A stretch of 12,446 nucleotides of DNA from an uncultured bacterium. Its GTDB lineage: Bacteria > CAIJMQ01. The DNA lies in contig CAZNJA010000037.1 in the NCBI GenBank assembly GCA_964573245.1, positions 658 to 13,103 on the forward strand, read 5' to 3'. The notes under the pieces were generated by a model that saw only the letters and a program-made list of their open reading frames with translations, was not told the origin of the DNA and ran no database searches. Shown piece after piece: positions 1,563 through 11,844 of this stretch (within the stretch, counting starts at the first letter, position 1; each line of letters opens with the position of its first letter). The position numbers were made by a program, and so were the translations under genes.

Positions 1563-2540
1563 ATGGATATTGAAAAACTTTTTTCGGATGGATTAAAAGG
1601 TAAAACAGCATTAGTAACAGGCGGTGCGGGATTCATTGGTTCACATATCGCGGACAGATTGCTTGAATTTGGGGCTACGGTTAAAATAATCGATGATTTT
1701 TCCGAAGGAAAAGAAGAGAACATAGCGCACATAATGGATAAAATCGAACTGTTCAAAGGCGATATAAGAGACCTTGAACTATTAAGAAAAATCACCAAAG
1801 GAGTAAATTTCATATTTCATGAAGCGGCAAGAAGGTCTGTCCCCAAATCCATAGAAGACCCGCTGACTTATAACGATGTAAATGTAACGGGAATACTTAA
1901 TATGCTTCTTGCATCGCACGAAAATAAAGTGGAAAGATTTGTATTTGCTTCGTCTTCTTCCATATATGGAGAAATTGACGAAAAGAAACCTCAAGCAGAG
2001 ACATCTATCCCCAAACTTATTTCTCCATATGCCGCTACCAAAATTGCAGGCGAATATTACTGCAGAGTTTTTAACGAAACATACAAACTTCCAACTGTTG
2101 CTTTAAGATATTTCAATGTTTTCGGTCCCAGGCAATCTCTTGAAAGCCAATATGCCGTCGTTATTCCCAAGTTCATAAACTGTATTATGAAAGATGAACA
2201 ACCGCCTATACACGGAGACGGATTGCAGTCAAGAGATTTCACATATGTGAAAAATGTTGCGAATTTTAATCTTTTAGCCGCGATTAAAAGCGAAGCGGCA
2301 GGACAGATATTTAATGTCGCAATAGGACAGACATACAACCTATTACAACTTGTAGGGGATATAAATAAAATTTTAGGCAAAGATATAAAACCCACATTTA
2401 CTCCTCCCCGCGCAGGAGATGTTAAATATACTTGGGCTGATATGAGCAAAGCAAAGAAATTACTTGGTTATTCTGCAGAAGTAAGTTTCTTTGAAGGACT
2501 AAAGAAAACGGTTGAGTGGTATAAGAAGGATAGAAAGTAG
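1563..2540 (+). CDS. NAD-dependent epimerase/dehydratase (extended SDR), UDP-hexose/HexNAc 4-epimerase (WbpP/TviC-like)
   Basis: Rossmann motif VTGGAGFIGSH, SVPKS, ASSSSIYG, catalytic YAATK, LRYFNVFGPRQ, GDGLQSRDFTYV, PRAGDV; AGGAG RBS at 1551-1555. Substrate cannot be fixed from sequence. Confidence 0.92.
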   Translation: MDIEKLFSDGLKGKTALVTGGAGFIGSHIADRLLEFGATVKIIDDFSEGKEENIAHIMDKIELFKGDIRDLELLRKITKGVNFIFHEAARRSVPKSIEDPLTYNDVNVTGILNMLLASHENKVERFVFASSSSIYGEIDEKKPQAETSIPKLISPYAATKIAGEYYCRVFNETYKLPTVALRYFNVFGPRQSLESQYAVVIPKFINCIMKDEQPPIHGDGLQSRDFTYVKNVANFNLLAAIKSEAAGQIFNVAIGQTYNLLQLVGDINKILGKDIKPTFTPPRAGDVKYTWADMSKAKKLLGYSAEVSFFEGLKKTVEWYKKDRK

Positions 2541-2613
2541 GTTATTTTATCTAACCTTTTGTCGACTAAAAACATATTAGAAAATATATTTGCCTGTCAA
2601 TTTCCCTCCTTGT

Positions 2614-2638
2614 CCCGCCCTTGCGTGCAAGGGCTGGG
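2614..2638. repeat. GC-rich hairpin (REP-like palindrome or weak terminator)
   Basis: CCC GCCCTTGC GT GCAAGGGC T GGG: a perfect 8-bp inverted repeat (2617-2624/2627-2634) with CCC/GGG extension. No clean U-tract follows (TTCACTACTTT). Confidence 0.6.
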
Positions 2639-2667
2639 TTCACTACTTTCCCCTCCAATGCTATAAT
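2639..2667 (+). promoter_or_regulatory. Sigma70-type promoter for secA with extended -10
   Basis: TTCACT (2639-2644), 17-nt spacer, TATAAT (2662-2667) preceded by TG-n (2659-2661). Confidence 0.75.
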
Positions 2668-2675
2668 GCACCGTT

Positions 2676-5420
2676 ATGTTAGGCAATATATTATCCAATA
2701 TCCGTCAGAAAAAAGAACTGGCGCGTCTTTCTAAAATCGTTGAGGAAATTCATTCTCATGAATCCGAAATGCAGTCGCTTTCCGAGAATGGAATTCTCAA
2801 AAAAACGGAAGAATTAAAATCAATAGCCGCGCAAAAATATAAAGAAAGCGAGGAATTGCTAAAAGGGTTTAATGCAAAGATAGATATGGCTTCCGGCGCG
2901 GAAGAGAAGGGCAGAGTCAAGAAAGAGGTAAAGAATTTATATAATCAGATACTTAATGATATTCTGCCTCAGTCCTTTGCGTTGGTTAAAGAAGCTTGCA
3001 GAAAAATGGTGGGCAAACGTTGGAATGTCAGCGATATAGAGATTACGTGGGATATGGTGCCGTTCGATGTGCAGTTGATGGGAGGGATTGTTCTTCACGA
3101 GGGTAAGATTGCGGAGATGGCTACAGGTGAAGGAAAAACTCTTGTGGCAACTATGCCTGCGTATCTTAATGCTTTGCTCGGCAAGGGCGTGCATATCGTT
3201 ACTGTAAACGATTATCTTGCCCATAGAGACAGCGAATGGATGGGGCCCGTATATAAATCGCTCGGGTTGACGGTTGGGGTAATTCAATCAAATATGGATA
3301 TAACCGCAAGAAGAGAAGCATATAGCTGCGATATTACTTATGGGACGAATAATGAATTTGGGTTTGATTATCTGCGCGATAATATTTCCGTTAGGAAAGG
3401 AGATATCGTTCAGAGGAATTTGCATTATGCGATTATCGATGAGGTAGATTCCATACTGGTTGACGAAGCGCGGACTCCGCTTATTATTTCAGGCCCGACC
3501 GATGATTCGGTTGAAATGTATTTAAAAATAGACAAAATAGTCCGACGGCTAAAAAAAGGCGTCGATTATGAAGTGGATGAAAAAGCGCATACTGTTACTT
3601 TGACCGAAGATGGAATAGAAAGGGCTCAAGAATTATTAGGAATAGATTCGCTTTATGATACTGCGAATATGGGTTTTGCAGGGTGTATTCAGCAATCTTT
3701 GAGGGCGCATAATCTTTTTCGTGAAGATAAGGATTATCTTATAAAAGACGGGCAAGTGCTTATCGTTGACGAATTTACAGGCAGACTTCTTCCGGGAAGA
3801 AGGTATTCCGAAGGGCTGCATCAGGCGCTTGAAGCAAAATCTATAAATGAGGGAAAGCAGGTAACTATCGAAAGAGAAAACCAGACCTTAGCCACGATTA
3901 CTTTTCAGAATTATTTTCGCCTTTATTACGAGAAATATGCGGGTATGACAGGAACTGCCAAAACCGAAGAAGATGAGTTTAAAAGAGTGTATGACCTTGA
4001 AGTTGTTCAAATACCGACCAATAAAACCTTGCAAAGGACGGAAATGACAGATGTTATATACAAAACAAGGAAGGAGATGTTGAATGCAGTCGGACAAGAG
4101 ATAAGAGAATTGCATGAAAAGGGAAGACCCGTATTGGTCGGGACAATTTCGATACAAAGTTCGGAGGAAGTTTCTAAACTTCTTAAGGAAGAGGGCATAG
4201 AACATGAAGTTTTGAACGCTAAATACCATGAAAAAGAAGCGAAAATAATATCGGATGCAGGACAAAAATCAACGGTAACGATTGCAACGCAAATGGCAGG
4301 CAGAGGAACTGATATAAAGTTGGGCAAAGGCGTTGCCGAAATAGACGGACTTCATATATTGGGTGTGGAAAGGCATGAAGATAGGCGCATTGATAATCAA
4401 TTGCGCGGAAGGTCCGGCAGACAGGGCGACCCCGGCTCTTCGCAGTTTTTTCTTTCATTGGAAGATGACCTTTTAAGGATATTCGGCGGTGACAGAATAA
4501 AAAATCTTATGGGGCGTTTTGGACTTCCCGATAACGAGCCAATCATCCATCCTTGGCTTACAAGAACTATAGAGGGAGCGCAAAAACGCGTTGAGGAGCA
4601 AAATTTCGAAATAAGAAGAAATCTATTGAGTTTCGACGATGTTATGGATAGACAGCGCGAAGTTATATATAAAGAAAGAAGAAAAGCTCTGGAGGAAGAA
4701 AACTTAAAGGAAATTATTTTGCAGATGATGGACGATGTGATAGAAAACGAAATGTCTTTTTACGCGCCGGAAAATATTCATTCGGAAGATTGGGATTGGG
4801 AGAGTTTGAAAAAGTTCGTTTCTTCTCATTTTTCTATTTCTTTTCCTGCTATAGATGCAAATCAAATAAACACAAATGAATTAAAACATATTCTAAAAGA
4901 GAAAATACAAGAGGCATATACAGCAAGAGAGCGAGAAATGGGCGGTGAAGTAATGCGGTATTTGGAAAAAATAGTTTTGCTTCAGACCATAGACAGATGT
5001 TGGAAAGAACATCTGCGAGATATGGACGAGTTAAGACAGGGGATAGGTTTAAGAGGTTACGGCGGAACGAATCCATTGGTTGAATATAAGAAAGAAGCAT
5101 ATCAAATGTTCGGCGCTCTCAATTATAGAATTGAGAAAGAAATTACCAATTATCTTTTGAAAGTCAGAATATCCGAAGAAAGAAATCCCGAAAACATTTT
5201 GGCTTCTGATAGAATGAGATTTTTGCATCCGGACTCGATGGGTTTGAGAAGAGAAGGCACAACGTCTAAACAAATGCCTGATACTCGGGTTACTCATCAG
5301 CAAACGGATGAAAAGACAGTGCCTTATCGGAGAACACAACCCAAAATAGGGAGGAATGACCCTTGCCCGTGTGGCAGCGGGAAAAAATATAAAAATTGTT
5401 GCGGTAGAAATATCGTATAA
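2676..5420 (+). CDS. secA: Preprotein translocase ATPase subunit SecA
   Basis: FDVQLMGG, Walker [77 protein letters not shown] and C-terminal SEC-C zinc motif [19 protein letters not shown]; 914 aa. Confidence 0.99.
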
Positions 5421-5434
5421 ATTAGGAGGTTACC

Positions 5435-6193
5435 ATGAGCATTTTCTTTTTTGGAAAAAAGAATAATGTAAAAAAAGAAACAAGCTCTGCTTTGGAACCG
5501 CATTCACAAAACAAAGATATTTGGGGCAAACCTGTTGCGGTTTTGTTTATGAGAATAGAAGGACAATCCAAGGTTTATGAGTTGCCGCATGACAAAGAAT
5601 TCAATATAGGCAAAGACTCCAAAAATGATTTGTGTTTGGACCAGCCCGATATTTCTGCTTTTCACGCAAAAATAACTCCTGTAAAAGACAGCTATGTTCT
5701 CTATAACTTATTATCGGAAGATGGAGTGAAAGTGAATCATCAACGGATTCATAAGTATAAATTAAGATTCGGGGATAAAATTGAAATTGGCTCCAATGTT
5801 TTGCTTTTTGATTTGAAAAGAGGGTATAGGAGAGACGATGAGTTTTTGGAAGGCGCCGAAAGAAGGAAAGCCGTAAGAATCTCTCCGCCGCTTACTTTAA
5901 GATTTATTGTTTATTCTCACAATAAAACTAAAGAATTTGTATCTTCAATAAAAGATATCAGTTTGGAAGGAGCAAGAATAGAATTGGAAGAAAAATTGCA
6001 GAAAGGAAGTATGATAGAAGCGCAAATTTATTCTCCGGAACTTCCTTCCATTGACTTGATAGCCACTATAGTGCGGGAAGTCGATTTTGACAAGAGTGGT
6101 AAAATGTTTTACGAGATTGGAGTTCAGTTCCTGGAAATGAGTGAAGAATCAAGGAAAAGCCTTCGTGCTTATCTTGTTAAATGTGTTTCTTAA
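5435..6193 (+). CDS. FHA domain + PilZ domain protein (paralog 1)
   Basis: FHA-like: FNIGKDSKNDLCLDQPDISAFHAKI...LYNLLSEDGVKVN...LRFGDKIEIG. PilZ: ERRKAVR (RxxxR), DISLEG (DxSxxG), YEIGVQFLEM. AGGAGG RBS in the 14-nt gap after secA. Confidence 0.88.
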   Translation: MSIFFFGKKNNVKKETSSALEPHSQNKDIWGKPVAVLFMRIEGQSKVYELPHDKEFNIGKDSKNDLCLDQPDISAFHAKITPVKDSYVLYNLLSEDGVKVNHQRIHKYKLRFGDKIEIGSNVLLFDLKRGYRRDDEFLEGAERRKAVRISPPLTLRFIVYSHNKTKEFVSSIKDISLEGARIELEEKLQKGSMIEAQIYSPELPSIDLIATIVREVDFDKSGKMFYEIGVQFLEMSEESRKSLRAYLVKCVS

Positions 6194-6205
6194 CAAATAT
6201 CCAAT

Positions 6206-6919
6206 ATGAAAGACGGAACCAACGATAATAATATTTTGGCGGATGTGCCGCAGAAAAAAGTGAAAAACAATTTTATTCGACCTGCTGTTCTTGTGTGTGA
6301 AAAAAATCACGGGAACTCCTCTGTTTACAATTTGCCCAATAATAAAGATTTTTTTGTGGGCAAGAATCCTGATAATGATTTATGTCTTGAAGGAGATAAT
6401 ATTTCTCATGTCCATGCAAAAATAAGCCCCGAACAAGACAGCTATGTGATTTATGATTTAGCCTCAGAAAGCGGATTGACTGTAAATTGGGCGAAAAAAT
6501 CAAAATGTAGATTGGAACATAAAGACAGAATTAAAATAGGCTCTTACAGTTTGATTTTTGAGTTTATAAAAGAAGGTAGAGTTTTTCGCGAAAGAAAAAT
6601 GGGAAATAGGACAGGTATGGTTGTGAAATTTTTGGTTAATTCGGAAAATGGCATAAAAGAAGTCAGTGGAATGGTGAAGGATATTAGTCTTAATAGTGCA
6701 TGGATAGAGTCGGAAAGAGAGTTGCAAAAGGGCAAAATCATAGAAGTGGGAATCTCTTCCGCTCAATTGCCGATTATTGAAGCTATAGCGCAGGTTATTT
6801 GGGAAAGAGCTCGAGACAAGGATGGGAAAATATTATACAATATAGGGCTTCAATTTTTGGAAATGGATGAGAAATCGAAAAACAGGTTGAAGGATTACCT
6901 TGGGGAAAGCATCCCCTGA
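6206..6919 (+). CDS. FHA domain + degenerate PilZ domain protein (paralog 2)
   Basis: FFVGKNPDNDLCLEGDNISHVHAKI...YDLASESGLTVN...LEHKDRIKIG, then ERKMGNR, DISLNS, AQVIW and YNIGLQFLEMD; collinear with its neighbours. Confidence 0.85.
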   Translation: MKDGTNDNNILADVPQKKVKNNFIRPAVLVCEKNHGNSSVYNLPNNKDFFVGKNPDNDLCLEGDNISHVHAKISPEQDSYVIYDLASESGLTVNWAKKSKCRLEHKDRIKIGSYSLIFEFIKEGRVFRERKMGNRTGMVVKFLVNSENGIKEVSGMVKDISLNSAWIESERELQKGKIIEVGISSAQLPIIEAIAQVIWERARDKDGKILYNIGLQFLEMDEKSKNRLKDYLGESIP

Positions 6920-6929
6920 ACAATGGCAG

Positions 6930-7766
6930 ATGAAAAACTTAATAGGTAGATGGTTTTCAAAGGGTTCGAAAGATAAAGTTGCGTCCGGGGAAAAAGCAAG
7001 CTATAAATCTGCTGTTTTCGTAAATAGAGCAAAAGAAGGCAGTTCCGACCTCTACCGTCTCACTTTAGACAGCATACCTCATGGAAAAGTAGAAAAAGTT
7101 CTGGATACTCCCGCCGTTTTAATCCATGCAAAAAAATATGATAAATCTCCTGTTTATAGTCTATTTACCGATAGAGAGTTTTTCATCGGGAGGAATTCTA
7201 AAAACGACTTGTGTTTGCAAGGCAAAGAAATTGTTGATGTCCACGCAAAAATAAGACCGGAAAAAGAAGGATATATACTTTATGATTTGATATCCAAAAG
7301 CGGAGTGTATGTAAATTGGGAAAAAGTGTTGAGGCATAAACTGGAGCACAGGGATAAGATAAGACTCGGAAATCAATCTCTGATTTTTGAATTGTTAAAG
7401 GATAAGGATGAAGAAATATTTGATGGTGTGGAGAGAAGAAAAACTGCCCGAATTACTCCCGCAATGACCTTGAAATTTTTGGTTTATTCTAAAGATAAAC
7501 TTGAAGAGTTCAGCGGAATAGTTAAAGATATTAGTATTGACGGAATCAGAATAGAAACGGAAAGGGAACTTTCCAAAGGCAGTATAATAGACGCGGGTAT
7601 TTCCTGCGATAAATTTCCTCTTTTAGAAGTTATAGCTCAAGTTATCTGGACCCAATCCAAACAAAGCGATTCAAAAGTGTTTTACCAAGTAGGGCTTCAG
7701 TTTATAGAAATGGATAATAACTCGAGAAATATATTGCGGGATTATCTTGTTAAGTGTGTTTCGTAA
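6930..7766 (+). CDS. FHA domain + PilZ domain protein (paralog 3)
   Basis: FFIGRNSKNDLCL...VHAKI...YDLISKSGVYVN...LEHRDKIRLG; ERRKTAR, DISIDG, AQVIW, YQVGLQFIEMD. Start placed at ATG 6930 (10 nt after the paralog 2 stop) rather than TTG 6900; start uncertain. Confidence 0.87.
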   Translation: MKNLIGRWFSKGSKDKVASGEKASYKSAVFVNRAKEGSSDLYRLTLDSIPHGKVEKVLDTPAVLIHAKKYDKSPVYSLFTDREFFIGRNSKNDLCLQGKEIVDVHAKIRPEKEGYILYDLISKSGVYVNWEKVLRHKLEHRDKIRLGNQSLIFELLKDKDEEIFDGVERRKTARITPAMTLKFLVYSKDKLEEFSGIVKDISIDGIRIETERELSKGSIIDAGISCDKFPLLEVIAQVIWTQSKQSDSKVFYQVGLQFIEMDNNSRNILRDYLVKCVS

Positions 7767-9132
7767 ACATTGATTTCGAGTGCAAGTCTTTTGAGTTTTT
7801 GGAATCAGTTATTTCCCCTTCTAATTCATAAGCGCCTGTCTTTATGATTTTAACTTCGTAGAAGTTACCTATTTTTGCGTTGCCTTTTACCTTTACGGTA
7901 TTATCTATATCTATTGTGTCGGCTTGGCGTCTCCCTTGATAAATCCCATGGGTGATTTCCCTGTCTATCAATATCGTAATCACTTTTCCTTTTAGTTTTC
8001 TGTTTTTCTTTTCGGCAATTTCTTTTTGTAAAGACAAAAGTTTTTTTAGTCGGAACCGTTTTACTTTTTCCGGGATTCTCCCTTTGAAATTAAAACTTAC
8101 TGTATTTTCTTGAGCCGAATAAGTGAATACTCCCAGATGGTCAAACTGCATGATTTTTACAAATTCTAACAGTTCATTGAATTCTTTGCTGCCCTCCATA
8201 GGAAAGCCTACAAGAAAAGTAGTTCTCAAAGCTAAATTTGGAATAGTTGTCCTTAGTTTATCAACTAGAGTCATTATATCTTTTTTATTTACTTTTCTTC
8301 TCATTGCCTTAAGGATTTTGTTATTACAATGTTGTAGGGGCACATCCAAATATTTGCAGACTTTTTCGTTTGTTGCTATGGTGTTTATTAATTCGTTGCT
8401 ATAGTGAGCAGGGTGGGTGTAAAGAAGTCTTATCCATTTAATTTTTTCTATTTTAGATAGTTTTTCCAAAAGTTCCGGCAATTTTCTTTTCTTGTAAATG
8501 TCTTCGCCGTATAAAGTTGTATCTTGTGCAATCAAATTTATTTCTTTGCATCCGGCCAAAGCCAATATCTTTGCTTCTTCTATTATGTTTTCCATTCTGC
8601 GCGATCGATATTTTCCTCGAAGTTGTGGAATAATACAGTAACTGCAACAGTTATTGCATCCGTCCGCTATTTTTAGATAAGCGGAGTGAATTGGTCCTGT
8701 GAAAAATCTTTGGGTAAATTCGTTTTTATAGCTTCTGTTTTTTCCTGTGTAAGCTATTTTATCTTTTTCTTTTGCTAATTTTGTGCAAGTAATCGCGATC
8801 TTATCTATGTTGAAAGGGTCTATTATGGCATCTATTTCCGGAATCTGTTTGAATAGTTCTGTTTTAAATAAAGAAGGCAAGCAACCGCTTACACATATTT
8901 TTTTGCGGTTTTTTTTTGTTGCAAAAGAAAGGATGGTATTTATGGATTCTTCTTGCGCAGGTTGTATGAAAGCACAAGTGTTAATTATTATGATGTCTGC
9001 TTCTTTCGGTGAGGGAACTATTGCAAAGCCTTTGTTTAACAAAAGCCCGAGCATATATTCCGAATCAACAAGATTTTTTGGACATCCGAGAGATATCAAT
9101 GAGACTTTGAACATTTCGAAATATTCTATCAT
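7750..9132 (-). CDS. rimO: Ribosomal protein S12 methylthiotransferase RimO
   Basis: UPF0004 domain SLGCPKNLVDSE, NTCAFI and GCL; radical SAM AYLKIADGCNNCCSYCIIPQLRG; IAQDTTLYGED, WIRLLYTHP, YLDVPLQH, RTTFLVGFP; C-terminal TRAM region. Likely start is ATG 9132 (purine-rich GAGAAGAG upstream) or 9114, not 9195. Confidence 0.93.
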   Translation of the reverse strand: MIEYFEMFKVSLISLGCPKNLVDSEYMLGLLLNKGFAIVPSPKEADIIIINTCAFIQPAQEESINTILSFATKKNRKKICVSGCLPSLFKTELFKQIPEIDAIIDPFNIDKIAITCTKLAKEKDKIAYTGKNRSYKNEFTQRFFTGPIHSAYLKIADGCNNCCSYCIIPQLRGKYRSRRMENIIEEAKILALAGCKEINLIAQDTTLYGEDIYKKRKLPELLEKLSKIEKIKWIRLLYTHPAHYSNELINTIATNEKVCKYLDVPLQHCNNKILKAMRRKVNKKDIMTLVDKLRTTIPNLALRTTFLVGFPMEGSKEFNELLEFVKIMQFDHLGVFTYSAQENTVSFNFKGRIPEKVKRFRLKKLLSLQKEIAEKKNRKLKGKVITILIDREITHGIYQGRRQADTIDIDNTVKVKGNAKIGNFYEVKIIKTGAYELEGEITDSKNSKDLHSKSMFTKHT

Positions 9133-9159
9133 TTTTCTCTTCTCATAACTCGGAATGCT

Positions 9160-9188
9160 TTGACAATGCACCCGTTTTCCAGTATATT
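9160..9188 (+). promoter_or_regulatory. Sigma70-type promoter facing purM
   Basis: TTGACA (9160-9165), 17-nt spacer, TATATT (9183-9188). Confidence 0.75.
9181..9186 (-). promoter_or_regulatory. Candidate -10 element for rimO
   Basis: TATACT on the - strand, about 50 nt upstream of the proposed rimO start. The -35 region is weak (TTATCT at 18-nt spacing). Confidence 0.45.
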
Positions 9189-9253
9189 GAAACACTGGTT
9201 ACGCAGATAAATTTTGTTAGGAAAAATTCTTCGTATGGTGGATTGGATCTTTA

Positions 9254-9286
9254 ATCCCCGCCTGCCAGATTCTGGTAGGCAGGGAT
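9254..9286. repeat. GC-rich hairpin in the purM leader
   Basis: ATCCC c GCCTGCCAG att CTGGTAGGC a GGGAT: 9-bp stem (one G-T pair), one mismatch, then a 5-bp stem. Confidence 0.7.
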
Positions 9287-9331
9287 GTAGTTATTTTGGG
9301 GAATCGGTGTAATAGTATTCGTGAAAAAAGC

Positions 9332-10387
9332 ATGAAAAACAAGAAATCGGCAACTTATAAACAAGCAGGAGTCAACGTTGGTATGGGAGAAGAATTTGTC
9401 GATAGGATCAGCCGAATAGTCACTAAGACACATAGAAAGGGAGTTCTTTCTTCGTTATCCGGTTTCGGCTCAATTTTTTCTCTTAAAGGTTATAAAAATC
9501 CCGTTTTGGTATCTTCCGCCGACGGCGTAGGAACAAAAATGGTTTTGGCGGATTTAGTGAAAAGGTATAACGGCGTGGGTGTGGATGTTGTCGCAATGAA
9601 TGTTGATGATATTCTTGCTATGGGAGCAGAGCCGCTGTTTTTTCTTGATTATCTGGCTTGCGGACAAATAGACCTGAAAATAGCCCAGCAAATAATTAAA
9701 TCCGTTGCAAAAGGATGCGAACAGGCGGGATGCTCTTTGATAGGCGGAGAAACAGCAGAGATGCCCGGCTTTTATAAAAAAGGACAATTTGAACTTGTCG
9801 GTTTTGCTGTAGGTGTGTTGGAAAAAGGGAAGGTCATAGACGGTTCGGGTGTAAAAGCCGGAGACAAACTTTTAGGTTTGCCGTCATCAGGGCTTCATTC
9901 CAACGGTTTTTCCCTTGCCAGAAATGTTTTGTTTCAGGATGCCGCCAGTGATAAAGAAAAAGTAAAAATCCTGAACAAGAAAGACAAGAAACTGGGCAGA
10001 ACTTGGGCTGATGCATTGCTTGAACCCACTCGCATTTATACAAAAACAATTTTGCCTCTTATAAAAAGCGATATAAGAATATCGGCAGTTGCGCATATCA
10101 CAGGGGGCGGATTAATGAGAAATATAAAAAGGGTTTTGCCTGATGGGTTCCAGGCGCATATTTTTTCGGGAAGATGGAAAATTCCTTCGGTTTTCGCGCG
10201 ATTGAAAGAATTAGGCCATATTACAGAAGAAGAGATGTTTAAAGTGTTTAATATGGGTATCGGGATGGTTTTGCTTATTCGTCCCGAAGAGGAAAAAAAG
10301 GTTCTGGATTATTTCAGGAGAAATAAAAAAGAAGTTTTTTTGATAGGAGTGGTGAGTAAAGGGAACAGAAAAGTAACAATAACTTAA
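9332..10387 (+). CDS. purM: Phosphoribosylformylglycinamidine cyclo-ligase (AIR synthetase)
   Basis: TYKQAGV, SADGVGTK, VAMNVDDI, GAEPLFFLDY, GGETAEMPG, SSGLHSNGFSL, LLEPTRIY, HITGGGL, FNMGIG. ATG 9332 fits the usual N-terminus better than TTG 9296. Confidence 0.98.
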   Translation: MKNKKSATYKQAGVNVGMGEEFVDRISRIVTKTHRKGVLSSLSGFGSIFSLKGYKNPVLVSSADGVGTKMVLADLVKRYNGVGVDVVAMNVDDILAMGAEPLFFLDYLACGQIDLKIAQQIIKSVAKGCEQAGCSLIGGETAEMPGFYKKGQFELVGFAVGVLEKGKVIDGSGVKAGDKLLGLPSSGLHSNGFSLARNVLFQDAASDKEKVKILNKKDKKLGRTWADALLEPTRIYTKTILPLIKSDIRISAVAHITGGGLMRNIKRVLPDGFQAHIFSGRWKIPSVFARLKELGHITEEEMFKVFNMGIGMVLLIRPEEEKKVLDYFRRNKKEVFLIGVVSKGNRKVTIT

Positions 10388-10434: not shown

Positions 10435-10536
10435 ATGGCAAGAAGCAAAACCAAAAATAAGATAAAGAGACACCGCTGGACATTAAAGAGAAAGAGAAAA
10501 AAACAACGCAATAGAACAAATACATCCAAGAACTAA
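10435..10536 (+). CDS. Small, highly basic protein (33 aa), ribosomal-protein-like; absent from the ORF track
   Basis: GGAGGA (10425-10430), 4 nt, then ATG. Translation MARSKTKNKIKRHRWTLKRKRKKQRNRTNTSKN*: 16 K/R and no D/E. It fills an otherwise unexplained intergenic gap. Confidence 0.7.
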   Translation: MARSKTKNKIKRHRWTLKRKRKKQRNRTNTSKN

Positions 10537-10617
10537 GAAAAGAATGCAATGAATGAGATGAATAACAAATGTCATTAATTTTTCTGTATATTCCTCTTGT
10601 TGTTTATGATAATAGCA

Positions 10618-11844
10618 ATGACAACGGAAAAAAAAGAAAAAATATTATCCCTACTTGAGCAAATAATAGGTATATTCCTCGCAGTTATTATTTTAACTAT
10701 CCCCTTTCCAAAACATATTCAGACAACTGAAACTTTTTGTTTTTTTATTATAATTCTTGCTTTCTTTATGAAGTCAGTTTTACATTCTCCTATAGAAGGA
10801 ACAAGAATAAATTTGCCTATTTTAGTCTTTACGATTTTCATTATTGTTTCAATCTTTTTTTCTGTTGATTATTCTTATAGCCTGCATGAATTCAGGAAGT
10901 ATTGGCTAAAGCCTATTCTCCTTTCATATTTTATTGTTAATTTTGCGGTTAATAAGAGAAACATTAGTTATATAGTATGGATAGTTCTTATTAGTTTTTT
11001 GGCTCCCATTATTTTAGGGATGATTCAATATTTTACCAAAGATATAATTGAATTAAAGAGCATGTTCGGAGCTTCTACTGAGTTTGCCCAATATTTAGAT
11101 TATGTTATCCCTTTTACGTTCGCTGTGGTATTGTACAATAGCCCCAAAATTCCTAGAATTTTACCAGGCTTAATTCTTGCTGGGGCATTTTTCTGTTTAA
11201 TTTTTACATATACCAGAGCGAGTTGGATCAGTGTATTAATTGCAGTGTTTTTTTTATGTTTTATAAAAAACAAAAAAGCTGTTCTCATTGTTATTGTTCT
11301 AGTTTTTCTATTACTGGTATTGTCCCCATATAGGGTGAAAAATAGAATTATTAGCATTGGTGACAAGGAAGACTATTTGCATAGAATTTACTTAATGGAA
11401 AATACAATAGACCAAGTTAAGAAAAGGCCTTTTACGGGCTATGGTTGGGGTTACCACAATTTTCACAATTTATATCCATCTTTCATTTCACCCGAGCTAA
11501 AAGCTTTGGGCATGGAAAAATCAAAGGGGTGGTTAGATCTATATCATGCGCATAATTATCCCGTAGAGATAGCGTTTGAGACGGGACTATTGGGTTTAGT
11601 AGTGTTTCTTTGGTTATGGATTACGATAATGGCTCTGACTTGGAAAAATTTTCTGAAGTTGAAAGACGCCTTCTTAAAAAATGTTATGTTGGGAATATTT
11701 ACCGCTTTTATTGCTTGCTCTATTCATTGGCTTGTGGAAATTCCCGATGCCAAACAATTGGTAATGCTTCTGTGGACTTTTGTAGGCTTGTCTATGGCTA
11801 TAATTAATATAACGGAGAAAAAATGGGAAAAGAAAACCCTTTAG
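10618..11844 (+). CDS. O-antigen ligase (WaaL/Wzy_C) family membrane protein
   Basis: Many hydrophobic segments; TYTRASWI, periplasmic-loop HRIYLM...RPFTGYGWG and HAHNYPVEIAFETGLLG motifs typical of the family. Start uncertain (ATG 10606 or 10618). Confidence 0.88.
   Translation: MTTEKKEKILSLLEQIIGIFLAVIILTIPFPKHIQTTETFCFFIIILAFFMKSVLHSPIEGTRINLPILVFTIFIIVSIFFSVDYSYSLHEFRKYWLKPILLSYFIVNFAVNKRNISYIVWIVLISFLAPIILGMIQYFTKDIIELKSMFGASTEFAQYLDYVIPFTFAVVLYNSPKIPRILPGLILAGAFFCLIFTYTRASWISVLIAVFFLCFIKNKKAVLIVIVLVFLLLVLSPYRVKNRIISIGDKEDYLHRIYLMENTIDQVKKRPFTGYGWGYHNFHNLYPSFISPELKALGMEKSKGWLDLYHAHNYPVEIAFETGLLGLVVFLWLWITIMALTWKNFLKLKDAFLKNVMLGIFTAFIACSIHWLVEIPDAKQLVMLLWTFVGLSMAIINITEKKWEKKTL

Follow-up and report, generated by a model that had tools for sequence, protein, structure and literature searches.

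Tandem FHA-PilZ Proteins Encoded Behind secA: A Putative FHA-Output Variant of the Two-Domain c-di-GMP Receptor

Introduction

In two-domain PilZ receptors such as YcgR, PlzD/VCA0042, MotI/DgrA and MrkH, an N-terminal beta-rich domain is connected by a linker featuring the RxxxR motif to a canonical PilZ domain with the DxSxxG motif, and in YcgR and PlzD the two domains close on each other upon binding of cyclic di-GMP (c-di-GMP). Here, we describe a window of 12,446 nucleotides (nt) of an uncultured bacterium (GenBank assembly GCA_964573245.1, contig CAZNJA010000037.1, positions 658 to 13,103 of the forward strand), in which three tandem genes directly behind secA encode the FHA-PilZ proteins P1, P2 and P3. 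P1 and P3 share the described layout, and all three proteins are, like the known receptors, soluble and in the range of about 230–280 amino acids (aa). They differ, however, at the N-terminus, where the known receptors feature a PilZN, PilZNR or degenerate PilZ domain and P1–P3 a forkhead-associated (FHA) domain. Further differences are the arrangement as three tandem paralogs with one motif-less member, and the absence from the window of any counterpart to the known partners, namely flagellar motor and DNA. According to the main text of a PilZ review (bioRxiv 10.1101/814665), c-di-GMP binds to xPilZ-PilZ proteins at the interdomain linker and binding is kept without exception by PilZ domains that are part of fusion proteins; the terms “FHA,” “forkhead” and “SecA” do not occur in this main text, and FHA is missing from its list of PilZ fusions.

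On the FHA side, the closest solved domains by sequence and fold are those of GarA/OdhI, EmbR, FhaA and Rv1747, which bind phosphothreonine (pThr) via a set of Arg, Ser and Asn residues and, in contrast to P1–P3, are not fused to PilZ. FHA domains of the YscD type represent phospho-independent scaffolds. Proteins of this kind, SctD/YscD of type III secretion systems, resemble P1–P3 with respect to the Pfam model PF16697, which exceeds its cut-off in all three, and Chlamydia CT664 (3gqs) was the second-best match in a sequence search of the PDB; P1–P3 differ from SctD/YscD in that they lack a transmembrane segment as well as periplasmic ring-building domains and end in PilZ. In a Pfam scan of the 12 open reading frames (ORFs) of the window, which also underlies the negative gene searches given below, no type III secretion family was found. 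A precedent for P2, which has lost both ligand motifs, is provided by the motif-less PilZ proteins of Pseudomonas and Xanthomonas, acting as protein adaptor in the FimX-PilZ-PilB chain, although these are stand-alone domains. Moreover, FHA reportedly serves as an input or interaction module of the c-di-GMP network in DgcB of Bdellovibrio. As an FHA-GGDEF protein (PMC6733907), DgcB belongs to the synthesis side, as opposed to the receptor side for FHA-PilZ.

In the literature searched, mostly at the level of titles and abstracts and with subscription journals and supplements outside the search, we found no characterized FHA-PilZ array and no description of an FHA-PilZ fusion or of a PilZ or other c-di-GMP receptor acting on SecA, and neither appears in the sections covered of PMC7063779, PMC13075795, 10.64898/2026.07.08.737194, PMC6733907 and PMC11239054. 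The secA-adjacent array is best classified as a two-domain PilZ receptor variant with FHA output, arranged in tandem with one signal-blind member, and its design is uncharacterized but not unique.

Results

Domains and Ligand Motifs of P1, P2, and P3

P1 (252 aa, 5435..6193), P2 (237 aa, 6206..6919) and P3 (278 aa counted from its ATG, 6930..7766) are encoded on the + strand behind secA, separated by 14, 12, and 10 nt, and P1 shares 41% identity with P2 and 44% with P3. This confirms the order, coordinates and paralogy proposed in a previous sequence-only reading of this DNA, which had also assigned an FHA-like and a PilZ domain to each protein. The profile scan agrees with this assignment. 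P1 matched PilZ (PF07238; 5.6e-16, 59.2 bits), FHA (PF00498; 4.6e-13, 49.8 bits) and Yop-YscD_cpl (PF16697; 6e-12, 46.1 bits); for P2 the values were 6.1e-11 (43.0 bits), 1.1e-12 (48.6 bits) and 7.1e-13 (49.1 bits), and for P3 2.5e-14 (53.9 bits), 2e-14 (54.2 bits) and 1e-9 (38.9 bits), respectively. As every score lies above the curated cut-off (22.5 bits for PilZ, 20.7 for FHA and 33.2 for Yop-YscD_cpl), these profile-based assignments are far beyond chance. The FHA domain comprises aa 57–119 of P1 (nt 5603–5791), aa 51–112 of P2 (nt 6356–6541) and aa 85–147 of P3 (nt 7182–7370), all on the + strand, and the PilZ domain aa 142–247 (nt 5858–6175), aa 141–232 (nt 6626–6901) and aa 168–273 (nt 7431–7748), respectively.

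The two motifs for c-di-GMP binding are intact in P1, with RKAVR in the linker (R144–R148, nt 5864–5878) and DISLEG in the PilZ domain (aa 174–179, nt 5954–5971), and likewise in P3 (RKTAR and DISIDG). P2 lacks RxxxR and its second motif reads DISLNS, i.e., both are degenerate, and the earlier distinction between P1 and P3 on the one hand and P2 on the other therefore held. The same pattern appeared in a motif table of 57 rows, consisting of relatives and the three window proteins, with P1 listed as P0001. Both motifs (RxxxR and [D/N]xSxxG) were intact in all 13 sequences of the P1 type and all 11 of the P3 type, while [D/N]xSxxG was altered in each of the seven P2-type sequences, five of which had also lost RxxxR (kept in two), with replacements differing between the members. 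Because the motifs are degenerate throughout this type while more than 100 other alignment columns are invariant among the seven sequences, P2 is, as judged from the alignment, a conserved protein with a ligand site freed from constraint.

Hydropathy analysis revealed no hydrophobic transmembrane segment in any of the 13 soluble-type sequences tested, P1–P3 included, in line with the earlier description as soluble two-domain proteins. P1, however, starts with MSIFFFGKK, and in all 11 P1-type N-termini compared a stretch of four residues, three to four of them hydrophobic (mostly F), is followed within one or two residues by a run of K/R. Such a sequence resembles membrane-targeting peptides of the MinE type.

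Structural Model of P1

P1 was the one paralog modeled. The AlphaFold2 model, calculated from a 14-sequence alignment, reached a mean predicted local distance difference test score (pLDDT) of 68.5 and a predicted template modeling score (pTM) of 0.45. It consists of an FHA domain (residues 35–127; block-mean pLDDT of 62–91, about 68 in the final strands) and a PilZ domain (residues 150–251; pLDDT of 72–86, helix at the end), while residues 1–32 and the linker (129–149), inside which RxxxR is located, are disordered. A disordered RxxxR linker fits the expectation for a PilZ receptor in the apo state. The predicted layout, which P3 shares by alignment, is an N-terminal beta domain, a flexible linker of about 20 residues with RxxxR and a PilZ barrel with DxSxxG.

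Foldseek comparison to the PDB matched the FHA part of the model to GarA, OdhI, FhaA, Rv0020c, and CT664 with template modeling (TM) scores by target of 0.83–0.90 and root-mean-square deviations (rmsd) of 1.7–2.0 Å; EmbR gave a similar rmsd, with a low TM score by target owing to its long chain. Consistently, each of the 18 matches in the PDB sequence search was an FHA domain (EmbR 3.5e-10, CT664 2.2e-07, OdhI 7e-07), and no PilZ chain was found at ≤0.001.

Across the whole chain, the best fold matches were MrkH, MotI, YcgR, and VCA0042, at low TM scores of 0.27–0.44 and an rmsd of 10–14 Å. The MrkH chains were at the top of this comparison (E 2.3e-07, TM scores of 0.40–0.44), as would be expected if P1–P3 were MrkH-like, c-di-GMP-dependent transcription factors with an FHA-PilZ unit binding to DNA. 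At an identity of 12–14% and an rmsd of at least 10 Å, however, the match reflects the succession of two beta-rich domains. Moreover, the N-terminal domain is FHA by Pfam and by fold and not of the PilZN type (neither YcgR nor YcgR_2 was found in the N-termini of P1–P3 at E ≤ 0.01 in Pfam), and relatives of the three proteins feature hydrophobic segments of the membrane type. We consequently rejected DNA binding as in MrkH, which has a next to negligible chance of being correct.

Phosphothreonine Contacts of the FHA Domains

To P1–P3, we mapped the pThr contacts of EmbR, which we take to be Arg312, Ser326, and Asn348, via a HMMER alignment. The equivalent positions read K/S/D in P1, K/S/S in P2 and R/V/S in P3, so that each protein has kept one of the three contacts. 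Within the P1 type (n = 12), the Arg position is occupied by R in seven, S in four and K in one sequence, and no P2-type sequence features Arg (0/7). P1 and P2 have retained the conserved His and the serine of SxxH, and P3 the Arg.

These residues bear on the question whether P1–P3 could be classical pThr readers, for which a Hanks-type kinase would mark the partner, the FHA domain would bind the pThr and PilZ would add a c-di-GMP input. The FHA scores well above the Pfam cut-off, the pThr-binding nature of the nearest solved relatives (EmbR, GarA, OdhI, and FhaA), the residues retained in P1–P3 and the complete set of Arg, Ser/Thr, and Asn contacts in all 19 membrane-anchored, P0109-like relatives (see below) are consistent with such a role. 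Set against this are the loss of two contacts in each window protein and the poor conservation of Arg in the P1 and P2 types, the Yop-YscD_cpl model for phospho-independent FHA domains, which scores about equally to PF00498 in P1–P3, and the window itself, with no kinase or phosphatase gene among its 12 ORFs. Overall, we regard pThr reading by P1–P3 as rather unlikely. Since one of three contact residues is left per FHA domain, the contact made by these domains is probably different from classical pThr recognition and phospho-independent. The earlier proposal that the FHA domains bind pThr or act as scaffolds is thus doubtful in its first part, whereas the second would be in line with the YscD-type model.

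Relatives and Evolution of the FHA-PilZ Proteins

A word-indexed search with P1 yielded 12 further clusters with 59–79% identity, whose named members are annotated as “PilZ domain-containing protein” in metagenome-assembled genomes (MAGs) of Candidatus Ratteibacteria or Omnitrophota. An exhaustive search of representative proteins gave 41168 matches at E ≤ 0.001, most of which were proteins with FHA only. Multi-FHA proteins prevailed in the 150 matches listed, while six entries matched in a single stretch across both domains (P0005, P0014, P0036, P0039, P0109, and P0144) and three were fragments. A search for longer fused forms that could name a partner gave just one FHA-only protein of 814 aa, which is weak evidence of absence.

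In P0039, P0109, P0144, and P0163, a longer cluster member, the FHA-PilZ unit is preceded by one or two hydrophobic segments at the N-terminus, and hydropathy analysis detected such segments in 11 of the 12 outgroup sequences examined. The exception was P0036, which is shorter than the 298-aa member of its cluster that does have them. P0039, P0144, and P0163 match the PilZ model of Pfam, but P0109 does not. In line with this, neither PilZ motif is present in any of the 19 tabulated sequences of the P0109-like group (P0109, P0184–P0206). As read from these sequences, the decay in this group, with FHA contacts kept and PilZ motifs lost, is the reverse of that in P1 and P3 of the window.

In a maximum-likelihood tree of 38 sequences with midpoint root, the P1 clade (support 100/100) and the P2 clade (100/99) were recovered, the latter inside a P3-like grade (89/91), and the membrane-anchored forms fall outside the P1, P2, and P3 types. 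P3 has a longer N-terminal region and shares an IPxGxVE motif with the membrane-anchored relatives. The order of events suggested by this tree would be the loss of the anchor, a duplication into P1 and a P3-like protein and, later, a P2 duplicate losing its ligand site.

Beyond this lineage, the ESM Atlas was queried with the homolog P0005 (72% identical to P1), and the matches are hence those of P0005. They include FHA+PilZ clusters of 254, 51, and 91 members, with Thermodesulfobacteriota and Pseudomonadota as commonest phyla, as well as clusters combining a cNMP-binding domain with FHA and PilZ. Because clusters of 51–254 members exist in other phyla, the FHA+PilZ architecture is widespread. 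The novelty initially ascribed to it consequently persists in so far as these proteins are uncharacterized, but the architecture is not rare.

Transcription Unit and secA Linkage

The gene in front of the array, secA (2676..5420, + strand), encodes a 914-aa protein of the housekeeping type with all SecA Pfam domains (e.g., SecA_DEAD at 1.6e-117, SecA_PP_bind, and SecA_SW) and a SEC-C zinc tail; it scores 1071 bits against the NCBIfam model NF009538 (cut-off 814). A promoter-like site on the + strand (2639..2667; TTCACT, 17 nt, TATAAT, with TG ahead of the –10 element, 10 of 12 consensus matches) ends 9 nt from the ATG of secA and is the likely start of a secA-P1-P2-P3 transcription unit, with the number of promoter-like sites in the region not above that in shuffles. 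P1 is preceded by the ribosome-binding site AGGAGG (5424..5429, + strand), which was already noticed in the sequence-only reading and is located 5 nt 5′ of the ATG, whereas no comparable Shine-Dalgarno sequence can be read upstream of P2 and P3. According to the ORF list, the frame of P3 is extendable to a TTG at 6900, but its orthologs begin where the P3 ATG falls. Also in agreement with the former description, a simple consensus scan detected no terminator-like site within 5421–7766 of the + strand, which is weak evidence of absence; the region 2400–9400 contains four such sites compared to 5.0 ± 2.3 in shuffles. Short gaps, the lack of Shine-Dalgarno sequences in front of P2 and P3 and the lack of terminator-like sites are signs of the operon type, and co-transcription of P1, P2, and P3 with secA from a promoter immediately 5′ of secA appears most likely. 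Weak promoter-like sites on the + strand (9/12 matches) were also found within P1 (5685–5714) and P2 (6813–6841), not above chance. The downstream boundary of the unit is the convergent rimO gene (7750..9195, – strand; S12 methylthiotransferase; TIGR01125 with 465.6 bits, cut-off 356.95).

A search of genome contigs for homologous loci gave 14 hits, three of which (L001, L002, and L003) encode FHA-PilZ fusions. The other 11 were discarded as FHA-PilZ loci, as only the FHA or only the PilZ part was matched, e.g., in sigma-54 activator-like or LuxR-like proteins (judged by eye). In L001–L003, all of them MAGs of Ratteibacteria/Omnitrophota, the FHA-PilZ genes are located directly behind secA on the same strand (3/3), with P1 and P2 in L001, P1, P2, and P3 in L002, and P1 and a P3-like gene in L003. 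A GGAG/AGGA-type site precedes P1 in each of them. Including the window, P1-type and P2/P3-type genes stand side by side in 4/4 loci, and for 8 of the 12 P1-type clusters a P2/P3-type cluster occurs on a contig of equal size, presumably the same contig. The secA/FHA-PilZ block is thus conserved, but within one narrow lineage. The linkage proposed earlier was found in all related loci, though these are close relatives; since their SecA proteins are 83–88% identical and most of the neighbors syntenic, the comparison has little evolutionary depth.

Two of these loci show deviations. In L001, two oligopeptide-type ABC ATPase genes take the place of rimO downstream, and a 1.3-kb insertion located upstream of secA, behind the epimerase gene (5973–7015, – strand), carries a DUF4258 gene (2.5e-17). 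As both flanks differ, the secA-FHA-PilZ block survived rearrangement on each side. In L002, secA and P1 are separated by 127 nt (5974–6100) compared to 14–19 nt in the other three loci. This spacer features two strong hairpins without U-tract (minimum free energy of –44.4 kcal/mol, z = –3.08, none of 200 shuffles as stable) and might represent either the insertion of a repeat element or a site of processing or attenuation. Co-transcription with secA, as suggested earlier, is hence in line with the operon-like spacing, but less so with the long and structured spacer of L002.

The arrangement raises the option that the FHA-PilZ proteins respond to c-di-GMP and regulate SecA or the Sec translocon or serve them as adaptors, tying export to the second messenger. 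It would explain why the genes directly follow secA at short distances with no terminator-like site in between, why two to three of them do so in 3/3 related loci, including L001 with its altered flanks, and it is compatible with the hydrophobic segments of the outgroup, which fit the membrane site where SecA works. However, all four loci belong to one narrow lineage with mostly syntenic neighbors and may merely have inherited their gene order, the hairpin-containing spacer of L002 separates secA from P1, and none of the papers listed in a literature search, as judged by title and abstract, links a PilZ or c-di-GMP receptor to SecA. Gene order is the sole basis of a functional link to Sec, and we consider such a regulation quite improbable.

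Further Features of the Window

Some additional observations concern secA and its surroundings. The extended –10 element (TG-n-TATAAT) ends at 2667, and no Shine-Dalgarno sequence is visible in front of the ATG at 2676; the secA transcript may have little or no leader. Ahead of the promoter-like site, a GC-rich hairpin can be seen by eye at about 2608–2632, with no T-run behind it. Upstream spacing of secA amounts to 136 nt in the window, about 800 nt in L002 and about 540 nt in L003, and the insertion in L001 also holds a 137-aa ORF without significant family match. Compared to the NCBIfam model, SecA of the window is extended by about 35 residues close to the N-terminus (protein position 82 corresponds to model position 47), and at least the start of this segment (residues 1–81, window 2676–2920) is conserved in L001–L003. 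At the other end of the unit, P3 (+) and rimO (–) share 17 nt at their 3′ ends (7750–7766), in which separate terminators do not fit; the spacing of the two genes is 27 nt in L002 and 19 nt in L003.

The window comprises twelve genes in total. According to the ORF list and profile scans, secA is preceded on the + strand by the 3′ end of purH (1–291), folE (403–960), a cyclodeaminase-type gene (FTCD_C, 962–1552) and an NAD-dependent epimerase gene (1563–2540), and rimO is followed, also on the + strand, by purM (9296–10387), a gene for a membrane protein of the Wzy_C/O-antigen-ligase type (10597–11844) and a GT2 glycosyltransferase gene (11823 to the window end). The first three genes form a small folate/purine cluster (1–1552) with purM further on, an order kept in L001 and L002. 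The longest ORFs of rimO (GTG, 481 aa) and purM (TTG, 363 aa) start upstream of their orthologs in L002 and L003 (439–442 aa and 348–351 aa, respectively), and the true starts are probably internal ATGs. At the beginning of the Wzy_C/O-antigen-ligase-type gene, the G+C content drops to 27% (10501–11000) compared to a window mean of about 37%, and L002 contains about 1.3 kb of extra sequence between purM and this gene. Neither Rfam matches, and hence no riboswitch, nor tRNAs were found in the window, which holds no RNA gene.

Discussion

In every detail that could be checked, the sequence-only reading had described the array correctly. There is direct support for the domain assignments, the state of the motifs, the paralogy and the operon-like packing as well as for the secA block in one narrow lineage, and on this basis we consider it an even bet that P1–P3 are soluble cytoplasmic c-di-GMP receptors or adaptors with the logic of two-domain PilZ proteins, an FHA output and one signal-blind paralog. 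P1 and P3 would bind c-di-GMP at the RxxxR linker and the barrel, a prediction from sequence and from analogy to known receptors. Binding could then re-orient the FHA domain against the PilZ barrel, as in YcgR, PlzD, MrkH, and MotI, and thereby enable or disable a protein contact made via FHA. P2 would be a signal-blind paralog kept under selection, an adaptor that could be constitutively active or act as a competitor and that possibly joins P1 or P3 in mixed complexes. The proteins would probably act at the inner face of the membrane, as suggested by the one to two hydrophobic segments of the outgroup and the hydrophobic-then-basic N-terminus of the P1 type. With regard to the partner, SecA is one candidate among many.

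Several observations weigh against parts of this proposal. Residues 1–32 of P1 were modeled with a pLDDT <50 and without secondary structure, so that membrane targeting by this segment is without structural support, and P2 of the window lacks the N-terminus of the P1 style altogether. At a pTM of 0.45 and an rmsd of at least 10 Å to the known receptors, domain arrangement and switch are drawn from analogy. Moreover, transcription of the FHA-PilZ genes may also occur independently of secA, given the weak promoter-like sites in P1 and P2 and the structured spacer of L002. Finally, no gene for a GGDEF, EAL, or HD-GYP protein was found among the 12 ORFs of the window, and c-di-GMP synthesis by this organism hence stays presumed.

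A more far-reaching option would be that the secA-FHA-PilZ block forms a functional unit, in which membrane-peripheral adaptors dock on SecA or the translocon via phospho-independent FHA domains, while c-di-GMP acting on P1 and P3, and P2 as competitor, tune export. If true, this would be the first case of a Sec pathway under control of the PilZ type, and SecA as target would add a new level of control for general secretion; the present evidence is, however, not in favor of it, and we consider this scenario very improbable.

Apart from the question of the partner, the family offers a natural experiment on the coupling of both domains. One branch combines intact PilZ motifs with a decayed pThr set in the FHA domain, the P0109-like branch shows the reverse, and both are lost in P2. 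Like the P0109-like branch, P2 appears to run counter to the rule of c-di-GMP binding in all PilZ fusions, as it is worded in the main text of the review (bioRxiv 10.1101/814665). So far, PilZ outputs are understood mainly in terms of the flagellar brake, polysaccharide synthases, pili and DNA binding. In this context, an FHA output would let c-di-GMP gate contacts that are usually under the control of Ser/Thr phosphorylation.

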